Shown: positions 1-6,693, counted from the first letter of the stretch. The stretch: 24,000 bases of DNA from a bacterium (GCA_963656685.1 CAVKJJ010000005.1:13461-37460); one strand, 5' to 3'. The notes: generated from the letters alone by a model not told the origin. Translations and numbers: made by a program.

Positions 1-1
1 T

Positions 2-538
2 CCCCAAACGGAGCAACACATACGCCAACTCCAAGCAGAAGGCAAAGCCGACGACATACGCCTCGTCGTAAAGTCCACACCTAGCTCCATGCACAGTTTC
101 TATGAGATAAGCCCATATCTCACCGATGCGCCGTTCTGCCTCACCACCGTCGACACGATATTTCGCGAAGACGAGTTTGCCACATACATCCGCCGTTTCC
201 GCGAATTCCAAGGAGACGGATGCATGGCCGTAACAGACTACATCGATGACGAAAAGCCGCTCTACGTTGGCACAGACAACGAGTTACACATCACTGGATT
301 TCACGACACCAACGAAGGAGATCGCTTCATTTCCGGAGGAATCTATGCCTTGCGCCCCTCCGCAATAGGAACACTCCGCCGATGCATTGAAAGCGGGCAA
401 AGCCGAATGCGCAACTTCCAACGTGCATTAGTCGCAGACGGACTAAGCCTCACGGCCTATCCGTTCTCTAAAATTCTCGACGTTGACCACGCATCAGACA
501 TTGCTAAGGCCGAATACTTTCTCCTAAGTAAGGCGTAA
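2..538 (+). CDS. Nucleotidyltransferase (NTP-transferase fold), C-terminal part; the gene starts left of the window
   Basis: Frame 2 is open from position 2, with no stop before the listed Met at 89, so the ORF is 5'-truncated by the window edge. The translation (LVVKSTPSSMHSFYEI...TTVDTIF...ISGGIYALRPSAI...ILDVDHASDIAKAE) resembles the C-terminal half of sugar- or alcohol-phosphate cytidylyl/nucleotidyl-transferases. The substrate cannot be assigned from sequence. Confidence 0.65.
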   Translation, partial: PQTEQHIRQLQAEGKADDIRLVVKSTPSSMHSFYEISPYLTDAPFCLTTVDTIFREDEFATYIRRFREFQGDGCMAVTDYIDDEKPLYVGTDNELHITGFHDTNEGDRFISGGIYALRPSAIGTLRRCIESGQSRMRNFQRALVADGLSLTAYPFSKILDVDHASDIAKAEYFLLSKA

Positions 539-582
539 ACAAGCCACGCCGTTCATACAGCCCTTTCTAGAACCCACCACTC

Positions 583-1455
583 ATGAACATACTTGGCATT
601 AGCCGTTCTCACCGCTTCAGCCCCAATTCTACAGGACGCGACGAGGCCATATTTATGGCAGTAGCCAGCCGACTCAACCGCCGACACGATGTGAGCATCA
701 TCAGCGAAGACCTCTTCGTAGCAGTTGACCTCAAAGAGTTCGACCTCGTGTATTCCATGGCACGCGGAACGGATGTTCTCCAAGCCCTTTCCAAGGAGGA
801 AAGCGAACACGGGCTGAAGGTCGTCAACTCCCCGACAGCGCTACTGAAAAACAACCGATGCGAACTCTACGAAACGTTGCGCAAAGCCTCCATTCCCCAA
901 CCCGCTTCGTTGCCCATATGCCCAACATCAGCCGAAGCCACGACCATAGCGAGCAAACTTGGATTTCCCCTTTGGATCAAACGTGGCGATGCTTGCGCAC
1001 AGTCGGCCAGCGATGTATGCTTCGTCGAAAGCGAGGCGCACTTGAAGGAATGCCTAGCTACGTTCAAAGGAAAAGACATACTTAGTGCACTAGCCGTAAG
1101 CCACATTGAGGGAGACCTCGTAAAATTCTACGGTGTAGAAGGCACAGATTTCTTCAACTACTCCTACCCTACTGCCGACAATGGGTTCAGCAAATTCGGT
1201 CTAGAGCAACACAACGGAAAGGCGCGTCATTTTGAATTTGACGAATATCAACTCCATCAACTAGCCACACGCTCAGCTCAAGCATCAGGCATTACGGTCT
1301 ACGGAGGCGATGCCATTATTTCCGAAGAAGGCAACATCACAATTATTGACTTCAACGATTGGCCTAGTTTTTCCTCTTGCCGTAAGGAAGCCACAAAGCA
1401 CATAGCAACCCGTCTGGAAAAGGAAGGCGAAAACATTCACATCCATAAAAGATAA
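583..1455 (+). CDS. ATP-grasp domain protein (ligase or kinase type; ITPK1-like D-x-N metal motif)
   Basis: 290-aa ORF starting 44 nt after the upstream gene. It has ATP-grasp hallmarks: GFPLWIKRGD (phosphate-binding Lys region) and the C-terminal GITVYGGDAIISEEGNITIIDFNDWPSF. The metal-ligand triad is D243/D256/N258, that is Asp-x-Asn rather than the usual Glu-x-Asn. Confidence 0.7.
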   Translation: MNILGISRSHRFSPNSTGRDEAIFMAVASRLNRRHDVSIISEDLFVAVDLKEFDLVYSMARGTDVLQALSKEESEHGLKVVNSPTALLKNNRCELYETLRKASIPQPASLPICPTSAEATTIASKLGFPLWIKRGDACAQSASDVCFVESEAHLKECLATFKGKDILSALAVSHIEGDLVKFYGVEGTDFFNYSYPTADNGFSKFGLEQHNGKARHFEFDEYQLHQLATRSAQASGITVYGGDAIISEEGNITIIDFNDWPSFSSCRKEATKHIATRLEKEGENIHIHKR

Positions 1456-1503
1456 GAACGAAAGAACAACTTTTACGTTGTTACCCGCTCAACTATTCAC
1501 TAA

Positions 1504-2451
1504 ATGACTCAAGAAACTTCCCCTAGCAAACTCGAATCCACATTCAAGTCGCAAGACACTGAAGAGTGGCTCGACATACATTTCACCCGTCCACTCGGAC
1601 TCTTGTGGGCACTCTTCTTCAAACGTCTGCACATACATCCCAACGTGGTAACCATTCTCAGCATCATACTTGGCGCAGCAGCCGGCGTGATGTTCTACTT
1701 CGAAGACATCCGGCTGACCGTCATCGGCATTCTTCTTCTCGTTTGGGCAAACCTCTACGACAGCGCAGACGGCCAGTTGGCCCGTATGACGGGACAAAAG
1801 ACACAATGGGGACGCATTCTCGACGGTTTTGCCGGCGACGTATGGTTCTTCACCATCTATGCAGCCATCTGCCTTCGTTTGCAAGGAAAATTTATCCCCG
1901 GAACAGAAACGTATTGGGGAATATGGATTTGGCTCATGGCTGCAGTGTCAGGATTCATTTTCCACGGAAAGCAGTGTCAGCTTGCCGACTACTACCGCAA
2001 CATTCACCTCTTCTTCATTAAAGGAAAGAACGGAAGTGAACTCGACAACTACGCTACAATTCACGCCGAATGGAAGCAACTGTCATGGAGCAAGAGCTTC
2101 GTTTGGAAAGTATTTCTTTACTTCTATGGCAACTATACTCGTTCGCAAGAGAAGATGACGCCGCGTTTCCAAACGTTCAAGGCATTACTAGACAAGAATT
2201 TTGCCGCATCCGGCATTCCCACCGATTTCAGAGCTAAGTTTCGCAACGGAAGCCTTCCGCTTATAAAATATGCCAACATCCTCACGTTCAACACACGCGC
2301 CATTGTGCTCTACATCACTCTGCTCATCGCAGAGCCTTGGCTATACTTCGTTTTCGAAATTGTAGTAATGAACGCGCTCTTCTACTACATGAGAGCACGC
2401 CACGAATCGCTCTGCTTCCAATTAACAAAGGAGCTACAGAACGACAAATAA
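1504..2451 (+). CDS. CDP-alcohol phosphatidyltransferase family membrane protein
   Basis: 315-aa polytopic hydrophobic protein. Residues 86-112 read DSADGQLARMTGQKTQWGRILDGFAGD (nt 1759-1839). This matches D-x2-D-G-x2-A-R-x8-G-x3-D, but the final Asp sits one residue later than in the canonical D-x3-D. Confidence 0.85.
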   Translation: MTQETSPSKLESTFKSQDTEEWLDIHFTRPLGLLWALFFKRLHIHPNVVTILSIILGAAAGVMFYFEDIRLTVIGILLLVWANLYDSADGQLARMTGQKTQWGRILDGFAGDVWFFTIYAAICLRLQGKFIPGTETYWGIWIWLMAAVSGFIFHGKQCQLADYYRNIHLFFIKGKNGSELDNYATIHAEWKQLSWSKSFVWKVFLYFYGNYTRSQEKMTPRFQTFKALLDKNFAASGIPTDFRAKFRNGSLPLIKYANILTFNTRAIVLYITLLIAEPWLYFVFEIVVMNALFYYMRARHESLCFQLTKELQNDK

Positions 2452-2505
2452 CAACCAAACTCTCAACCGTGCTCCAATGTGGCAAAGCACGCATAATCCT
2501 TACTT

Positions 2506-3615
2506 GTGCCCAGCAACCTACCGCTACAAGGAAAGATTGCAGCACGCGATACCTCCAACACCTTGAAACCTCTTTTTCGCAACATTTTCCTTTTGTTCGG
2601 CATAGCAGCCATTGTAGTTATGCTTTGCAAATTTCCTGTCAACTACAATGAGATAGGAAATAACATACGCCTTATGGGCCTTTACTTGCCGGCAGTTGTT
2701 GGCGTTTGGATCTTTGTCTATGCCTTCAACGCCTGGGCTTTCCAGATTATCGTCAACAACGGTACGCACGACAAGCACCTATCCTTTCGCCATGCCTACA
2801 AACTCACCGTGTCGGGGTTTGCTTTTAGCTACACCACTCCTTTCGGCTTTGGCGGAGGACCTTACCGCGTGATGGAACTTAGTGCCTTCATCGGAGTGCC
2901 ACGCGCCATGTCCTCCGTGGTGCTCTATTCCATGATGCATATCCTTTCCCACATATGCCTTTGGAGCACTGCTGTAGTGGTGTTCGCCCTTGCCTACACC
3001 GAAAAGATGACGCCATTCCTTTGGTGGCTCTTTGTCGGCTATTTTGTGCTTCTTCTCGCTGTGCTGTTTGTCTTCAACCTTTGCTACAAGAAAGGAGTCA
3101 TCGTAAAACTCTTCACCCCCTTGCTTCACGTTCCCTTCGCAAAGAAATGGGCAAGAAAGTTCTACGACAAAAACATCGACTCCATGCGCAAAGTCGACGA
3201 GAACATTGCATACCTGCGTTCACAACCTCGCGCTTTTTGGCTTTCACTCCTCTTCGAATATGTAGCTCGCGTAATCAATTCGCTCGAATATTACTTCATT
3301 CTACTCTCCCTCGGTGTCAGCCTTGACTTTTGGGACGCACTTCTTGTCCTCGCCTTCTCATCACTCATCGGCAACCTGCTTTTCTTCCTCCCTATGCAGC
3401 TCGGTGCACGAGAAGGCGGTCTTTCCGCAATTGTCAAGATTCTCGGGCTCAGTGCTCCTGGCATAGGCGTACTCACCTCCCTCTACACCCGCATACGCGA
3501 ACTCGTGTGGATTTTTATCGGTGTAGGACTTGTAAAAATCGGCAACAAAAACATCATGCGCGACGGAACATCTTCCCAATGCGATGACAATAAAACCGAA
3601 GCCAACAACAAATAA
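2506..3615 (+). CDS. Flippase-like membrane protein (lysyl-phosphatidylglycerol synthase TM-region / UPF0104 type), with no synthase domain
   Basis: 369-aa ORF with about 8 hydrophobic helices. It carries family-typical segments (TTPFGFGGGPYRVMEL; LLFFLPMQLGAREGGL). The start is uncertain: the track start at 2506 is GTG, and the first internal ATG (2620) would cut the first helix. Confidence 0.65.
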   Translation: MPSNLPLQGKIAARDTSNTLKPLFRNIFLLFGIAAIVVMLCKFPVNYNEIGNNIRLMGLYLPAVVGVWIFVYAFNAWAFQIIVNNGTHDKHLSFRHAYKLTVSGFAFSYTTPFGFGGGPYRVMELSAFIGVPRAMSSVVLYSMMHILSHICLWSTAVVVFALAYTEKMTPFLWWLFVGYFVLLLAVLFVFNLCYKKGVIVKLFTPLLHVPFAKKWARKFYDKNIDSMRKVDENIAYLRSQPRAFWLSLLFEYVARVINSLEYYFILLSLGVSLDFWDALLVLAFSSLIGNLLFFLPMQLGAREGGLSAIVKILGLSAPGIGVLTSLYTRIRELVWIFIGVGLVKIGNKNIMRDGTSSQCDDNKTEANNK

Positions 3616-3635
3616 GAGACTTCACTTTCCCCTAT

Positions 3636-4352
3636 ATGCAACATCTCCATGCCCTACTCTTCGACTATGGCGGCACACTTGACACTGCTGCCAGCCATTG
3701 GTCCTACGTTCTGGAAGAAGGCTACCGCCAAGCCGGCATCCATTTGTCAGAAGCCGACTTCCGCACAGCCTATGTCTTTGCGGAACGCGCATTGGCAAAA
3801 ACGCCCATCATCAAGCCGGACTTCACCTTCAAGCGTCTACTAGAAGAGAAAGTACGCTTGGAATTGCAAAACCTTTCAGCACAAGGCGTATGGAACTTTG
3901 CTTCCAACGAGGAGCAGAGCAACACAATAGACCGCATAGCCTCCTTCTGCGACCAATTTGCACAAGAACACGTAGAGTTGTCGCGCCGCACGCTTGAAGA
4001 ACTCCACAAAAAATACAAACTTATCATGGTTTCCAATTTCTACGGAAACCTCCCCACCATCCTCCGAACTTATGGCATAGCCCATCTCTTCGATGCCGTA
4101 GTAGAAAGCGCTGTTGTAGGTGTGCGCAAGCCCAATCCCGGAATCTGGAACCTCGGTGTAAAAGCTGCCCAGTGCGAAGCTTGCGAAACAATGGCTATCG
4201 GCGACAGTTTCTCAAAAGATATTATACCGGCTCACTCCATTGGTTGCCAAACGGTATGGTTCAAAGGAAAAGAATGGGAAGAAAAAGAATACGACGAAAC
4301 GCTTCCAACTCACATCATTTCCTCTCTGAAAGAACTTACCGACCTTCTATAG
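3636..4352 (+). CDS. HAD-superfamily hydrolase (phosphatase-like)
   Basis: The four HAD motifs are visible: LLFDYGGTLD (motif I, second Asp replaced), IMVSNF (II), RKPNPGIW (III Lys) and IGDSFSKDI (IV). It starts 20 nt after the upstream gene. Confidence 0.85.
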   Translation: MQHLHALLFDYGGTLDTAASHWSYVLEEGYRQAGIHLSEADFRTAYVFAERALAKTPIIKPDFTFKRLLEEKVRLELQNLSAQGVWNFASNEEQSNTIDRIASFCDQFAQEHVELSRRTLEELHKKYKLIMVSNFYGNLPTILRTYGIAHLFDAVVESAVVGVRKPNPGIWNLGVKAAQCEACETMAIGDSFSKDIIPAHSIGCQTVWFKGKEWEEKEYDETLPTHIISSLKELTDLL

Positions 4353-4393
4353 AGTTTACCCCTTAGGTGATATTATCTTCAAAATGCGAGTTT

Positions 4394-4747
4394 ATGAAAA
4401 TCATCTACAACAAGGTCATCCCTTTCGGAAAAGACTTCTACGCCATCAACCTCTTCGGCATTCTTTTCGCTAAAGGTCCATGCGATGAAGTCACACTAAA
4501 CCACGAAAGCATCCACACAGCGCAAATGAAAGAATGGGGTTACATCCCTTACTATCTGTTTTACTGCATTGAATGGCTCATTCGCATCATTCAATACAAA
4601 GGTTACACTCGCGGATATTTCAACATCTCTTTCGAACGCGAAGCATACGCCAACCAATACAACCTTCGTTACCTAAAAGAGCGCAGACATTATGCCTCAC
4701 TACATTATCTGCGAAAACGGCCCGATTGCCCTGAGTTTTCATTATAG
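4394..4747 (+). CDS. Small conserved hypothetical protein with an HExxH motif (putative metal-dependent hydrolase-like)
   Basis: The ATG at 4394 (MKIIYNKVIPFGKDF...) is preferred over the GTG at 4367. It contains NHESIHTAQ (HExxH) followed by FEREAY. This is the last co-directional ORF after the HAD gene, with a 41-nt gap. Confidence 0.5.
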   Translation: MKIIYNKVIPFGKDFYAINLFGILFAKGPCDEVTLNHESIHTAQMKEWGYIPYYLFYCIEWLIRIIQYKGYTRGYFNISFEREAYANQYNLRYLKERRHYASLHYLRKRPDCPEFSL

Positions 4748-4755
4748 AAGCTGCG

Positions 4756-4826
4756 TGCAAAAAGCAAGGCATCGTGTAGAAAATCCAAGGCACGGTGTAC
4801 GAAATGAAAGGCATGTATGTGAGTCG
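4756..4826. repeat. Three tandem ~21-bp units, each an A-tract followed by an AAGGCAY core
   Basis: AAGGCAT at 4766, AAGGCAC at 4787 and AAGGCAT at 4808 give an exact 21-nt spacing. Each core is preceded by an A-run (gcaaaaag, agaaaatcc, cgaaatga). The same unit type recurs at 18282-18351. Confidence 0.6.
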
Positions 4827-4890
4827 TTCATGAAATATTGCAATACAACGGATATCAATATCCCTTGATATTATGCTTTTCTTCGCGCGC

Positions 4891-5058
4891 ACGCGCGTAT
4901 ACAGAAAGTTTGTGCAAACAACCTTCAGCCTTCAGCCGCAGTAGATGTTTTACCAGAAATCTATACTTGTTCGAGTTTCTTGGAGAAGACTTTTCTATGT
5001 TGTGGTCTATAAGGCTGAAGGCTGAAGGTTGTTTGCACAAACTTTGGTGTATGCGTGT
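4891..5058. repeat. Long inverted repeat / hairpin-forming element (33-bp perfect arms, imperfect 12-bp extension)
   Basis: 4905-4937 (aaagtttgtgcaaacaaccttcagccttcagcc) is the exact reverse complement of 5013-5045. After a small internal loop, 4891-4902 pairs with 5047-5058 (9 Watson-Crick pairs plus 3 T:G positions). A 75-nt spacer lies between the arms. Confidence 0.85.
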
Positions 5059-5182
5059 AATGCACATGCAAAGAGAACCATTCAGTACACTTTTCACATG
5101 TAAGAACAGAACCATGAAAGGAAATTACATTTTAAAGATGATATAACCCGTTCTAAGCGAAGCGACGTTTAAGCACCTTGTG

Positions 5183-5226
5183 GAAATTATCTACGAGCCC
5201 AACATGTTGGGCTCGTAGATAATTTC
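5183..5226. repeat. 44-nt perfect palindrome
   Basis: gaaattatctacgagcccaaca | tgttgggctcgtagataatttc is self-complementary over all 44 nt. The flanks accttg (5175-5180) and caaggt (5229-5234) extend the pairing after a 2x2 mismatch. Neither strand has an adjacent U-tract. Confidence 0.85.
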
Positions 5227-5340
5227 AGCAAGGTACACCAATTCAGAGAGGCGCTTATTACGGATTATACGCTTGCTATAACTCACAAGTTTATGCGCAC
5301 ACATAGTGCAGAACATACCCTTCAGCTACCGACGCGAATA

Positions 5341-5387
5341 TTAGAAAAGCGCCCCCTATGATAATTGTTCATCACCATAGAGGGCGC
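5341..5387 (-). terminator. Rho-independent terminator of glyA
   Basis: On the minus strand, gcgccctctatggtgat-gaaca-attatcatagggggcgc forms a stem of about 17 bp (some G.U pairs). TTTTCTAA follows, 26 nt after the glyA stop. Confidence 0.8.
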
Positions 5388-5412
5388 GATATTGTAACCA
5401 CATAGAGTTTGT

Positions 5413-6693
5413 TTAGTAAGCAAACAAGGGATAGCTTTCCATTGTTTCGTTTACCTTTCGACGCACATCGGCAATGACACTTTCGTCCGTCGGATTATTG
5501 AGCACACGTTCAATGAGTTCGGCGATGAGCACCATAAGATCTTCCTTCGCACCACGCGTGGTGATAGCAGCTGTACCTAGACGGATGCCAGAAGTCTGGA
5601 ATGCAGAACGGTCATCGAAGGGTACCATATTCTTGTTGACAGTAATGTCCGCAGCAACCAAAGCATTCTCTGCTACCTTGCCTGTGAGTTCCGGATATTT
5701 CGGACGGAGATCTACGAGCATCGAGTGGTTGTCTGTTCCACCGCTCACAATGGCAAATCCGCGCTTTACTAATTCTTCGGCAAGACATTCAGCGTTTTTC
5801 TTAACCTGAAGAGCATATTCCTTAAACTCCGGCTGCAAAGCTTCGCCAAAGGCTACGGCTTTTGCGGCTATTACGTGTTCAAGCGGACCGCCTTGTTCTC
5901 CGGGGAAGACTGCGCTGTTGAGCAACTGACTCATCATTTTGATAACGCCTTTGGGAGTCTTCTTACCCCAAGGATTTTCGAAGTCTTTCCCCATGAGAAT
6001 CAAGCCTCCGCGCGGGCCACGCAGTGTCTTGTGGGTTGTAGTAGTCACAATGTGGGCGTATTTTACCGGATTATCAAGCAAGCCTGCTGCGATAAGTCCT
6101 GCAGGATGTGCCATGTCAACCATAAAAAGAGCGCCAACCTCATCGGCAATAGCACGCATTCTTGCATAGTCCCACTCTCGGCTGTAGGCAGAACCACCGC
6201 CAATAATGAGTTTGGGCTTATGTTCCAAAGCGAGACGTTCCATCTCGTCGTAGTCTATGCGGCCCGTCTTCGGATCTAAATTATAACCAATGGGATGATA
6301 GAGGATGCCGCTAGTATTAACAGCGGAACCATGGGAGAGATGACCACCATGGGCGAGATTAAGGCCCATAAAGGTATCACCTGGGTTAAGTACAGTGAGG
6401 AGAACAGCGGCATTGGCCTGTGCGCCGGAGTGAGGCTGCACGTTGGCGTACTCTGCACCGAAGAGTTTTTTTGCACGTTCTATGGCCAACGTTTCCACTT
6501 GGTCTACCACCCCGCATCCGCCATAGTAGCGATGTCCAGGATAGCCTTCGGCGTATTTGTTGGTCAGGCAGGAGCCCATGGCGCGCAGCACTTCGTCGCT
6601 GACAAAGTTCTCTGACGCAATTAATTCAATGCCGCGCAACTGGCGACGACGTTCAGCCTCTACGAGCTGAAAGATTTGTGTGTCTCTTTCCAT
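5413..6693 (-). CDS. glyA: Serine hydroxymethyltransferase
   Basis: 426 aa of full-length SHMT-like sequence, including the PLP-lysine motif [15 protein letters not shown]. Confidence 0.97.

Follow-up and report, generated by a model that had tools for sequence, protein, structure and literature searches.

What does the gene cluster at the left end of this bacterial DNA build, and has such a cluster been seen before? The window, i.e. the whole 24,000-nt stretch analysed here (GCA_963656685.1, CAVKJJ010000005.1:13461-37460), opens with five co-directional plus-strand ORFs, and the gaps of 44, 48, 54 and 20 nt given in an earlier note on this DNA were exactly reproduced by our ORF listing (Table 1). 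That note read the genes as a biochemically uncharacterised pathway of the CDP-alcohol type for polar head groups, and our analysis supports this core reading. The cluster represents a variation on CDP-alcohol head-group pathways already known, and clusters of its type have been published, with attachment of inositol phosphate to sphingolipids of bacteria as their proposed function. On balance we favour, with modest confidence, its identification as the Prevotella/Phocaeicola-type 'alternative' inositol-lipid operon. The pathway, using a CDP-activated soluble donor and divided into two modules, would most likely provide dihydroceramide with a phospho-inositol head group (giving inositol phosphoceramide) and may do the same for glycerolipids.

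Table 1. Genes of the cluster and the ORF that follows it (positions in the window).
Feature	Position	Strand	Basis or remark
Nucleotidyltransferase, 3' part (178 codons + stop of a 235-aa protein)	1..538	+	frame open from base 2
ATP-grasp enzyme, 290 aa	583..1455	+	fold match (AF2/Foldseek)
CDP-alcohol phosphotransferase-family membrane protein, 315 aa	1504..2451	+	PF01066
PF03706 (MprF transmembrane/HpnL-like) membrane protein, 369 aa, GTG start	2506..3615	+	PF03706
HAD-superfamily subfamily IA hydrolase, 238 aa	3636..4352	+	PF00702, PF13419, PF13242
Small ORF, 126 aa, HExxH motif (HESIH)	4367..4747	+	14 nt 3' of the HAD gene

The first gene is indeed cut by the window's left edge: the ORF listing puts the first plus-strand ORF at 89..538, in a frame that is already open upstream, and this truncated ORF alone gave no Pfam match. 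A public contig (L001), identical to the window across the 600 bases compared, supplies the upstream sequence and carries the full nucleotidyltransferase gene (L001:4514-5221), with PF00483 and PF12804 on record. The HMM scan proposed in the earlier note recovered PF01066, PF03706 and HAD families and no ATP-grasp family at cut-off; the ATP-grasp assignment was borne out by fold. None of the cluster's proteins reaches a curated family-specific (equivalog) cut-off for a characterised enzyme. The PF03706 gene is called 168 nt later on L001 (313 aa), but we favour the longer form because conservation in relatives extends through the upstream part. Membership of the small ORF in the cluster is doubtful: it has no Pfam or NCBIfam match and no tblastn match in the related loci (0/80), and the gene called at its position on L001 encodes 117 aa.

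Synteny was counted in the 80 best related loci, from Bacteroidales, Cytophagales and Chitinophagales, taking the nucleotidyltransferase, ATP-grasp, transferase and HAD genes as the core. Among these loci, the nucleotidyltransferase and the transferase were each found in 78 and the HAD gene in 75; all four core genes are present in 73/80 and co-directional in 72/80, whereas the PF03706 gene is adjacent in 44/80. Because gene order recurs in 72–73 of the 80 loci, the cluster is no chance arrangement, and the synteny across Bacteroidota that had been named beforehand as a test proved very strong. The same gene order occurs in Phocaeicola plebeius (L061; identities 66%, 64% and 41%), and a Tannerella MAG (L077) contains a nucleotidyltransferase–ATP-grasp–transferase–HAD cluster. 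The ATP-grasp protein is encoded in at least 597 GTDB species genomes, and our search found 6252 relatives.

The second putative PI pathway of Prevotella mentioned in the earlier note corresponds to the 'alternate cluster' of Heaver et al. (Nat Microbiol 2022; below, Heaver 2022), in which an NTP transferase, a CDP-alcohol phosphatidyltransferase and a HAD protein are encoded near MIPS; it was described as putative, common in Prevotella and functionally unconfirmed (PMC9246714). In Bacteroides (Phocaeicola) vulgatus it comprises BVU_RS13095, 13105 and 13115. The three named genes, their order and the LPG-synthase-like neighbour recur in the window cluster, which is an orthologue of this cluster type, and this match argues for the identity proposed above. 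Among genomes with the published cluster, some, e.g. P. copri, also have MIPS at another site. The gene between the nucleotidyltransferase and the transferase was given no role there, and the main text does not use the term 'ATP-grasp' (PMC9246714). Here, this ATP-grasp gene is a core cluster member, absent from the published description and new to this work.

We infer the following order of steps. Inositol phosphate would come from a MIPS encoded elsewhere in the genome, or from salvaged inositol. In a soluble module, the ATP-grasp protein would phosphorylate inositol or inositol monophosphate in the manner of an ITPK, and the nucleotidyltransferase would use CTP to form CDP-inositol or CDP-inositol-phosphate. 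In a membrane module, the CDP-alcohol phosphotransferase would transfer phospho-inositol(-phosphate) to ceramide with release of CMP, a membrane-held HAD hydrolase would take off the remaining phosphate or otherwise process the product, and the PF03706 protein would bring the completed lipid into the outer leaflet. The split into two modules is supported by gene fusions, which join the nucleotidyltransferase to the ATP-grasp protein in at least four lineages (L039, L062, L068, L074), the transferase to the HAD protein in L062 and, according to Heaver 2022, in P. veroralis, and the PF03706 protein to the HAD protein in L025 and L031. The fusions with the nucleotidyltransferase point to an early soluble step next to nucleotide activation, and the earlier suggestion that the ATP-grasp enzyme modifies the product late, after dephosphorylation, is thus disfavoured.

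The nucleotidyltransferase is a probable sugar- or alcohol-phosphate cytidylyltransferase that would yield the CDP-activated head-group donor. It retains the N-terminal G-x-G-x-R-L motif (AAGEGSRL) and resembles, far below cut-off, the NCBIfam models Arch_glmU (4.5e-11) and IPCT/DIPPS NF041135 (6.3e-11 over residues 2-233; 41.9 bits vs a cut-off of 580). When its family profile was compared with the PDB, generic sugar-1-phosphate nucleotidyltransferases came first (5e-9), which counts against inositol, followed by T. maritima 4jd0 (3e-7), IPCT 2xme (6e-6) and LicC (9e-6). The structure 4jd0 has been identified as inositol-1-phosphate cytidylyltransferase (PMC12275187), and its alignment over nearly the whole length of the protein (residues 5-224 of the 235-position profile) argues for a soluble CDP-alcohol donor. 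The substrate cannot be read from likeness to IMPCT, however, since a related nucleotidyltransferase in Caulobacter uses phosphoglycerate (PMC12275187).

The transferase, which the earlier note had correctly placed in the CDP-alcohol family (PF01066, 8e-13; 49.5 bits vs a cut-off of 22), probably moves the phospho-head group onto (dihydro)ceramide or a glycerolipid. In profile comparisons with the PDB, AF2299 (2.3e-12) is far ahead of CHPT1 (3.7e-5), PIPS (~1e-4), DIPPS (2.5e-4), PssA (0.03) and PgsA (0.12), and the lead of AF2299 over PssA and PgsA, both CDP-DAG enzymes, again favours a soluble donor. AF2299 is also the top Foldseek match of the AlphaFold2 model (mean pLDDT 85.5; TM 0.47), with M. 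tuberculosis PIPS just after. The nearest NCBIfam models, by contrast, are the archaetidylinositol-phosphate (AIP) and PIP synthases, which use CDP-lipid donors and are the top matches in 37/37 orthologues, all far below cut-off (PIPS 39.8 bits vs 170; the BT_1523 model 21.5 vs 350). These matches count against a soluble donor and raise the rather unlikely alternative of a PIP-synthase-like reaction between a CDP-lipid (CDP-diacylglycerol or a hypothetical CDP-ceramide) and inositol 3-phosphate. The HAD protein would then remove the 3-phosphate, like BT_1525 in B. thetaiotaomicron, a sequence that suits the transferase–HAD fusion as well as the presence of MIPS near some loci, and the ATP-grasp/nucleotidyltransferase pair would make the CDP-lipid (e.g. 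with a lipid kinase acting first and cytidylylation coming second) or have another purpose. Yet the PIPS and AIPS scores are limited to the common motif region, the profile favours AF2299 over PIPS by seven orders of magnitude, and the nucleotidyltransferase has the fold of a soluble sugar-phosphate enzyme, not of a CDP-DAG synthase. To our knowledge, CDP-ceramide has never been reported. Moreover, the one ceramide kinase characterised from bacteria is a member of the LCB5/DAG-kinase family rather than the ATP-grasp superfamily (PMC10331486). The soluble-donor route we prefer has its own difficulty in the catalytic motif (D86xxD89GxxAR94x8G103xxxD107xxxxD112), whose final Asp is shifted by one residue towards the C terminus relative to the canonical form.

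The ATP-grasp family is unannotated and, as far as seen, restricted to Bacteroidota. No Pfam family was matched at cut-off (best RimK, E=0.034), and we assigned the fold from an AlphaFold2 model (mean pLDDT 91.3) that matched LysX/ArgX, Ddl, ITPK1 and RimK in Foldseek, each with a probability of 1.0 and the best with a TM of 0.74. Two readings of its activity can be weighed. The enzyme could be a ligase that joins a carboxylate to an amine or a hydroxyl, adding e.g. an amino acid to the head group or to a precursor of it; the modified lipid would then be exported by the PF03706 protein, as MprF flips aminoacyl-phosphatidylglycerol. ATP-grasp enzymes characterised so far are mostly ligases, MprF is the best-known carrier of the PF03706 domain, amino-acid ligases come closest in structure (LysX/ArgX first at TM 0.74, Ddl and RimK next), and weak RimK and LysX sequence matches occur. 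We nevertheless consider a ligase improbable: fusion to the nucleotidyltransferase suggests a step next to nucleotide activation, profile matches marginally favour ITPK over RimK, and plain inositol phosphoceramide is reported in cluster-bearing organisms, in reports that mention no aminoacylated inositol lipid.

The protein, weakly ITPK-like, is probably a kinase acting just ahead of the nucleotidyltransferase. ITPKs, described from eukaryotes and archaea (PMC8024741), share its fold and make up 5/9 of the profile matches in the PDB (E=0.007 to 0.27), the best being Entamoeba ITPK 1z2n. In both families an aromatic residue, P and S/G come after a D-x-N Mg-binding motif ([IV]D-x-N-x-[FW]P[SG][FY]; IDFNDWPSF here, VDVNVFPSY in ITPK), and we count this motif and the profile matches in favour of a kinase. 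The resemblance is marginal (E=0.007; structural alignments give 12-18% identity), ITPK1 fits slightly less well by structure (TM 0.63-0.67) than LysX/ArgX, which weighs against this reading, and PF05770 matches 1/30 family members, below cut-off. Further support comes from T. forsythia, which depends entirely on exogenous inositol for its inositol-phosphoceramides; no candidate for an inositol kinase had been found there, and a homologue of the CDP-inositol-dependent transferase BEPIS is present (PMC4587543). The cluster in the Tannerella MAG, taken with this case, argues for a kinase.

The earlier description of a flippase-like protein without a synthase domain holds: PF03706 (LPG_synthase_TM) is matched at 3.4e-24, TIGR03476 HpnL at 8e-17, below cut-off, and Pfam detects no synthase domain. 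It is presumed to be the flippase for the finished head-group lipid, and a BT_1521-like 'lysylphosphatidylglycerol synthase' gene was noted near both cluster types (PMC9246714). The 'HAD phosphatase' stands as a HAD protein (nearest NCBIfam models DREG-2, 3.6e-21, and YjjG, 7e-21, all below cut-off), but the phosphatase label is less safe, because an invariant Gly replaces the usual Asp+2 general acid/base: motif I reads D10-Y-G12-G-T14-L-D16, with Gly at this position in 30/30 orthologues and motifs II-IV intact. It presumably works at the membrane on the transferase product. The fusions and the motif suggest a membrane-tethered hydrolase with atypical chemistry, whereas Heaver 2022 proposed a PI:ceramide transferase. 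A simple CDP-inositol route would need no phosphatase; this, the missing Asp+2 and the shifted Asp of the transferase count against our preferred explanation.

Is inositol the head group? The leftward extension suggested earlier yielded PdxA, RlmN and a SPOR protein and no MIPS in ~4.7 kb on L001, and tblastn found no MIPS anywhere in the window, of which 19.6 kb lie 3' of the cluster; for this genome, inositol is therefore assigned by orthology. Elsewhere, MIPS lies within 10 kb in 23/80 loci, often directly 3' of the HAD gene and co-directional, and a PfkB sugar kinase gene directly follows the HAD gene in seven Cytophagales loci, in whose flanks no MIPS was found; both neighbours support a link to inositol. 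In L017 and L022, a PfkB gene is nearby on the opposite strand. PI-DHC is made by B. vulgatus and P. veroralis, both without B. thetaiotaomicron-type genes, and DHC-PI by P. copri (PMC10865984), which strengthens this link. The same seven Cytophagales loci carry the cluster in one co-directional array with a serine palmitoyltransferase (NF047600, 719.5 bits vs a cut-off of 640), an SDR and a fatty-acid hydroxylase, pointing to ceramide.

It is very unlikely, in our estimate, that the cluster instead makes another head group (phosphoglycerol, phosphoglycerate) or a soluble di-inositol-phosphate-type solute, with inositol metabolism loosely associated. Besides the missing MIPS here, 49/80 loci lack both MIPS and PfkB within 10 kb, the IMPCT-like enzyme of Caulobacter produces CDP-glycerate (PMC12275187), phosphoglycerol-dihydroceramide is a further product of P. 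copri, B. vulgatus and P. gingivalis (PMC9246714), and di-myo-inositol-phosphate synthesis follows the same nucleotidyltransferase, CDP-alcohol transferase and phosphatase logic. Against this, MIPS is the recurrent metabolic neighbour, cluster-bearing species without B. thetaiotaomicron-type genes make inositol phosphoceramide, and homologues of either cluster are absent or very infrequent in Porphyromonas (Heaver 2022), although P. gingivalis makes phosphoglycerol-DHC. The flippase-like member, the HAD membrane fusions and the serine palmitoyltransferase linkage argue for a lipid rather than a solute.

Compared with known systems, the inositol-lipid operon proposed here resembles the Rhodothermus marinus CDP-inositol pathway, outlined as MIPS + IPCT + BEPIS (Jorge et al. 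2015, in PMC4587543), archaeal IPCT/DIPPS and AF2299 in pairing a soluble cytidylyltransferase with a PF01066 enzyme that uses a soluble CDP-alcohol. AF2299 is by far the nearest solved relative of the transferase, and IPCT structures are among the nucleotidyltransferase matches. Descriptions of these systems include no ATP-grasp, HAD or flippase-like partner; the cluster scores far below the IPCT/DIPPS cut-off, its transferase has a long family-specific C-terminal half (roughly 140 residues) besides the shifted Asp, and its acceptor is probably ceramide rather than dialkyl-glycerol or inositol phosphate. The B. thetaiotaomicron/mycobacterial route (MIPS, PIP synthase BT_1523, PIP phosphatase BT_1525, IPC synthase BT_1522) would share the end products PI and inositol phosphoceramide, and both sets include a PF01066 enzyme, a phosphatase-like enzyme and BT_1521-like neighbours; the cluster lacks an AUR1-like IPC synthase and a PgpA-type phosphatase and has the nucleotidyltransferase and ATP-grasp genes in addition. 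A precedent that supports our explanation is the ceramide (di)phosphoglycerate pathway CpgA-D of Caulobacter crescentus (PMC12275187, PMC11324152), a sphingolipid head-group operon that also combines a cytidylyltransferase (the IMPCT-like CpgD), a CDP-alcohol transferase-domain protein, a phosphoesterase and a candidate flippase. The likeness is one of gene types, the sequence comparison being the shared IMPCT similarity of the nucleotidyltransferases; the head group there is glycerate, not the inositol proposed here, and the kinase is the LCB5/DAG-kinase-type ceramide kinase, not an ATP-grasp protein (PMC10331486). BT_1527-like (DUF5686) neighbours also occur beside the cluster in other genomes.

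The five co-directional reading frames that an earlier note had placed at the start of the window, with gaps of 44, 48, 54 and 20 nt between them, were confirmed by the ORF listing (see the table). The family labels given to them were sustained by Pfam for the CDP-alcohol transferase, the PF03706 protein and the HAD hydrolase; that of the ATP-grasp enzyme was upheld by its fold, with no Pfam family, and the truncated nucleotidyltransferase (NTase) matched no Pfam family by itself. The public contig L001 (Logan), which does not differ from the window in the 600 bases compared, extends it leftwards and supplied the full NTase, a protein of 235 aa that starts MKFAIIAAGEGSRL and is recorded with PF00483 and PF12804.

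Positions of the cluster genes, of their immediate neighbours and of the gene array found in Cytophagales
Feature	Position	Strand	Basis or remark
NTase, 3' part	open frame from base 2 to stop at 538	+	ORF listing
ATP-grasp enzyme, 290 aa	583-1455	+	ORF listing; label via fold
CDP-alcohol (CDP-OH) transferase, 315 aa	1504-2451	+	PF01066
PF03706 flippase-like protein, 369 aa, GTG start	2506-3615	+	Pfam
HAD hydrolase, 238 aa	3636-4352	+	PF00702, PF13419, PF13242
Small ORF, 126 aa, HExxH-like motif HESIH	4367-4747	+	14 nt after the HAD gene
PdxA	L001:3212-4459	co-directional with NTase	directly upstream of window base 1
Cytophagales array	L019:3247-15704		equivalents in L027, L032, L040, L046, L056 and L073; Dyadobacter, Runella, Larkinella

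The small ORF was not counted in the system because it is not conserved across related loci, with a counterpart in none of 80; it matched no Pfam or NCBIfam family. A gene is called at its position on L001. The remainder of the window is housekeeping: glyA was read from its translation, and Pfam identified a GH2 beta-galactosidase, def, ruvX, serS and a release factor. A promoter and terminator scan of positions 1-5500 gave no excess over shuffled expectation, using a sigma-70 consensus that is unsuited to Bacteroidota. The earlier note had proposed to look upstream for an inositol-3-phosphate synthase (MIPS). The 4.7 kb that L001 adds on this side hold only SPOR, RlmN and PdxA genes and no MIPS, and tblastn found none of MIPS, DUF5686, PfkB, DUF4837 and DUF4833 in the 24-kb window. 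PdxA stands immediately 5' of the NTase gene, in the same direction, in 44 of the 80 loci, mostly preceded by RlmN; this holds for most Bacteroidales and for none of the Cytophagales arrays. Since it scores 348.9 bits, above the cut-off of 290.35 for the true PdxA equivalog, and is missing from these arrays, its position next to the cluster is probably conserved housekeeping synteny.

Searching one genome per GTDB species with the alignment of the ATP-grasp family, we found a relative encoded in at least 597 species. Among the 80 best loci, the Bacteroidales are represented by Prevotellaceae, Bacteroidaceae and Phocaeicola, Alloprevotella, Muribaculaceae, Tannerellaceae and Dysgonomonadaceae; the others belong to Cytophagales (Dyadobacter, Runella, Larkinella) and Sediminibacterium. 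Near the ATP-grasp gene, the NTase and the CDP-alcohol transferase are each encoded in 78 of these 80 loci and the HAD hydrolase in 75. The full set of four occurs in 73 loci, in 72 of them in one direction, which marks the ATP-grasp gene as part of the cluster's core, seemingly obligate rather than a passenger. Synteny among relatives, which the earlier note had wished to see assessed, thus holds for the four-gene core, loci of Phocaeicola and Prevotella included. The PF03706 protein and PdxA are each encoded nearby in 44 of the 80 best loci, a DUF5686/CarboxypepD_reg protein in 33, MIPS (within 10 kb) in 23 and a PfkB sugar kinase in nine. PfkB lies directly 3' of the HAD gene in seven Cytophagales loci, in whose flanks MIPS was not found, and, in L017 and L022, close by on the other strand; MIPS and PfkB occur together in L022 only. 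Five of the loci (L002, L004, L036, L039 and L049) belong to 'cleanbin' assemblies labelled Christensenella, Clostridiales, Christensenellaceae, Oribacterium or Oscillospiraceae; given their Bacteroidota-type cluster, which in L002 reaches 92% identity with the window proteins, these taxon labels look wrong.

The existence of such a cluster is not new, since the type has already been described bioinformatically (Heaver et al., 2022, PMC9246714). As the earlier note had rightly stated, that study reported a second putative pathway in Prevotella: it distinguished two MIPS-linked cluster types among Bacteroides and Prevotella, the characterised type of B. thetaiotaomicron and a functionally unconfirmed one, proposed to make PI and inositol phosphoceramide through CDP-inositol (PMC9246714). 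In Prevotella this alternative cluster outnumbers the B. thetaiotaomicron type about fourfold; it occurs also in P. vulgatus and P. dorei, both abundant in the gut, and is sometimes found apart from MIPS, as in P. copri; its neighbours encode an LPG-synthase-like protein (BT_1521 homologue) and a CarboxypepD_reg-like protein (BT_1527 homologue; PMC9246714). The window cluster likewise holds the NTase, the CDP-alcohol transferase and the HAD hydrolase, all co-directional, and has no MIPS in its direct vicinity, that is, in the window or the 4.7 kb upstream on L001. The term 'ATP-grasp' is absent from the main text of PMC9246714, and the locus-tag spacing of the published cluster leaves two unnamed genes, 13100 and 13110. 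We found in the literature neither a later characterisation of the alternative pathway nor a link between it and an ATP-grasp enzyme. What is new here is the core status of the ATP-grasp gene, a two-module architecture deduced from gene fusions, a linkage to serine palmitoyltransferase in Cytophagales, a HAD hydrolase without the Asp at nucleophile+2 and a shifted catalytic Asp in the transferase.

Natural fusion partners tend to act in neighbouring steps, the so-called Rosetta-stone argument. The NTase and the ATP-grasp enzyme form a single polypeptide of 516-540 aa, with the NTP_transferase domain at the N-terminus, in four loci (L039, L062, L068 and L074), and the PF03706 protein is fused to the HAD hydrolase in two (L025 and L031). 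In L062, from a Dysgonomonadaceae MAG, the CDP-alcohol transferase is also fused to the HAD hydrolase, so that NTase-ATP-grasp, transferase-HAD and MIPS stand in a row, with nothing else of the cluster. A transferase-HAD fusion was also reported in P. veroralis (Heaver et al., 2022, PMC9246714). By the Rosetta-stone argument, the fusions define a soluble module (NTase, ATP-grasp) and a membrane module (transferase, HAD, PF03706), placing the ATP-grasp enzyme beside nucleotide activation on a soluble substrate and the HAD hydrolase at the membrane beside the transferase and the flippase-like protein. The earlier reading of the cluster as a polar head-group pathway is essentially supported, except for the late modification step assigned to the ATP-grasp enzyme, which is probably wrong.

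The AlphaFold2 model of the ATP-grasp enzyme (mean pLDDT 91.3, pTM 0.88) matches LysX/ArgX, Ddl, ITPK1 and RimK with a Foldseek probability of 1.0 and TM-scores up to 0.74. K133, D243, D256 and N258 are invariant in the family alignment, and the model predicts a three-domain ATP-grasp fold with Mg/ATP-binding residues; Pfam gave no family at cut-off for any of 30 family members. Likeness to ITPKs is marginal. In the profile search against the PDB, the best match was the ITPK 1z2n (E=0.007, 18.9 bits, in two short separate stretches), followed among others by ITPK4 (0.1) and human ITPK1 (0.24), ITPKs making up five of the nine matches. The ITPK counterparts of the family motif IDFNDWPSF read VDVNVFPSY and IDINAFPGY, and the ITPK family PF05770 (Ins134_P3_kin) matched one of the 30 members, at E=0.011. 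Foldseek against the PDB placed the ligases LysX and ArgX slightly above ITPK and so does not discriminate between kinase and ligase. A ligase that decorates the head group, as these scores would allow and as the fusions to the NTase would not lead one to expect, seems quite unlikely. A ceramide kinase is disfavoured, the known bacterial ceramide kinase CpgB being a member of the LCB5/DAG-kinase family. Should the ATP-grasp enzyme be an inositol(-phosphate) kinase, it would be, as far as we know, the first ITPK-type relative from bacteria.

The NTase is best described as a generic sugar/alcohol-phosphate nucleotidyltransferase, judging from a profile search in which IPCT structures are among the matches and not at the top: HddC, RmlA and G1P-CT (5e-9 to 1e-8) outscore both T. 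maritima 4jd0 (3e-7, over nearly the whole length) and the IPCT 2xme (6e-6). The IPCT/DIPPS model NF041135 gave 41.9 bits against a cut-off of 580. Because 4jd0 is the T. maritima inositol-1-phosphate cytidylyltransferase and the related enzyme CpgD takes phosphoglycerate instead (PMC12275187), this likeness leaves the substrate unfixed. A head group other than inositol, or a product that stays soluble, seems very unlikely to us for a cluster type carried by makers of inositol lipids.

PF01066 was detected in the CDP-alcohol transferase with 49.5 bits (8e-13) against a gathering threshold of 22. Foldseek matched its fold to AF2299 (top, TM 0.47) and PIPS, and the profile search against the PDB returned AF2299 at 2.3e-12, CHPT1 at 3.7e-5, PIPS and CEPT1 at about 1e-4, DIPPS at 2.5e-4, PssA at 0.03 and PgsA at 0.12. 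AF2299, an archaeal CDP-alcohol phosphotransferase related to IPCT/DIPPS, is thus far ahead as a profile match, which suggests a similar use of a CDP-alcohol. In NCBIfam the nearest models were AIP/PIP synthases, far under cut-off and covering the motif region alone (PIP synthase NF045883, 39.8 bits vs 170; BT_1523-type NF052561, 21.5 vs 350). PIPS-like use of a CDP-lipid and inositol phosphate, towards which these models and the PIPS fold match would lean and from which the lead of AF2299 points away, appears distinctly improbable. Among 37 orthologues (alignment A3), D86, D89, G90, A93, R94, G103 and D107 are invariant and the final signature Asp, D112, is found in 34. The spacing from D107 to this position is four residues in all 37, compared with the canonical three, so that the signature reads G-x3-D-x4-D instead of G-x3-D-x3-D and the catalytic Asp comes one residue later. 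The C-terminal half is family-specific. Two more conserved segments, K-S-x-D-T-E-E at the N-terminus and A-D-Y-Y-R-N-x-H, were also noticed in A3; they had no match in the examined alignments to solved structures.

The 369-aa protein carries the MprF flippase region (PF03706, LPG_synthase_TM; 3.4e-24, 86.3 bits vs a cut-off of 33.4) as its sole Pfam match, with no C-terminal aminoacyl-PG synthase domain, and HpnL is its nearest NCBIfam model. The HAD hydrolase shows the HAD fold (PF00702, PF13419) with motifs I-IV: D10, K165, D190 and D195 are invariant and S133 nearly so (alignment A6). Its motif I, D-Y-G-G-T-L-D, departs from DxD in having Gly at nucleophile+2, the place of the general acid/base Asp, in 30 of 30 orthologues, which suggests an atypical chemistry; phosphatase activity is possible, since a Gly occupies the corresponding place in E. 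coli YihX, whose annotation is that of a glucose-1-phosphate phosphatase. D16 and H21-W22 are invariant among the same 30 orthologues as well.

A clue to the acceptor comes from seven Cytophagales loci, in which a co-directional array runs from serine palmitoyltransferase through a 373-aa unannotated protein, an SDR, DUF5686, NTase, ATP-grasp, transferase, PF03706, HAD, PfkB and DUF4833 to a fatty-acid hydroxylase. The serine palmitoyltransferase scores 719.5 bits with NF047600 (cut-off 640). B. vulgatus and P. veroralis lack B. thetaiotaomicron-type genes (BT_1522, BT_1523 and BT_1525 homologues) and produce PI-DHC nevertheless; P. copri makes DHC-PI (PMC10865984). Because of this array and of these lipids in hosts of the cluster type, (dihydro)ceramide is the most likely acceptor. 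Both the 373-aa protein and DUF4833 may supply sphingolipid steps that are still missing.

We propose that a soluble ATP-grasp kinase and the NTase, acting as a cytidylyltransferase, would make a CDP-activated inositol donor, from which the PF01066 enzyme would move the phospho-head group onto ceramide; the HAD hydrolase would then process the membrane product and the PF03706 protein translocate it. T. forsythia makes inositol-phosphodihydroceramides solely from exogenous inositol and is devoid of MIPS and IMPase; a homologue of BEPIS, a transferase that depends on CDP-inositol, is present, and no candidate inositol kinase had come to light (PMC4587543). The model fits these lipids and the Tannerella MAG L077, which carries NTase, ATP-grasp, transferase and HAD in this order, and offers the ATP-grasp enzyme as a possible 'missing' inositol kinase for T. 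forsythia. An inositol transporter was also considered beside the Tannerella cluster; the upstream gene encodes an Asp-Al_Ex/TrkA_C permease and is uninformative.

It is tempting to sharpen this model, in a speculative version that we regard as rather unlikely. The ATP-grasp enzyme would be a bacterial ITPK-like kinase converting Ins3P, from MIPS or salvage, to Ins(1,3)P2; the NTase would form CDP-inositol-3-phosphate, a donor that to our knowledge has yet to be described; from it the transferase would give ceramide-phospho-inositol-3-phosphate, and the HAD hydrolase would remove the 3-phosphate. Such a scheme would account for a kinase and a hydrolase in a route that is otherwise Kennedy-like, for both fusion types and for MIPS or PfkB as alternative upstream suppliers; it would also offer a way from a 3-phosphorylated precursor to a 1-linked inositol lipid that bypasses CDP-diacylglycerol.

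Compared with the IPCT/BEPIS system of R. marinus, archaeal IPCT/DIPPS, the B. thetaiotaomicron/mycobacterial PIPS route and the Caulobacter CpgA-D pathway, the window cluster adds the ATP-grasp enzyme, the atypical HAD hydrolase and the flippase-like protein. The inositol lipids of B. thetaiotaomicron influence its fitness in mice as well as capsule expression and resistance to antimicrobial peptides (PMC9246714). For a widespread and important gut-bacterial pathway, the ATP-grasp enzyme adds a fourth core enzyme and the serine palmitoyltransferase linkage a direct genomic link. We infer the substrates of every enzyme; these putative assignments are concrete and testable, and reduce a vague pathway proposal to a few enzyme assays and deletions of single genes.

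Further genes were noticed beside related clusters. In the Dysgonomonadaceae loci L062 (10869-11678) and L068 (13908-14723), the gene after MIPS resembles those of the acyltransferases OlsF and GlsA of ornithine- and glycine-lipid synthesis (NF052615, 8e-37, below cut-off), which may be a further lipid-synthesis gene. An MFS transporter gene follows the HAD gene in four Bacteroidaceae/Phocaeicola loci (L017, L022, L023 and L061); in L017 and L022 it lies beside the divergent PfkB gene, and the two could form a pair for inositol uptake and phosphorylation.
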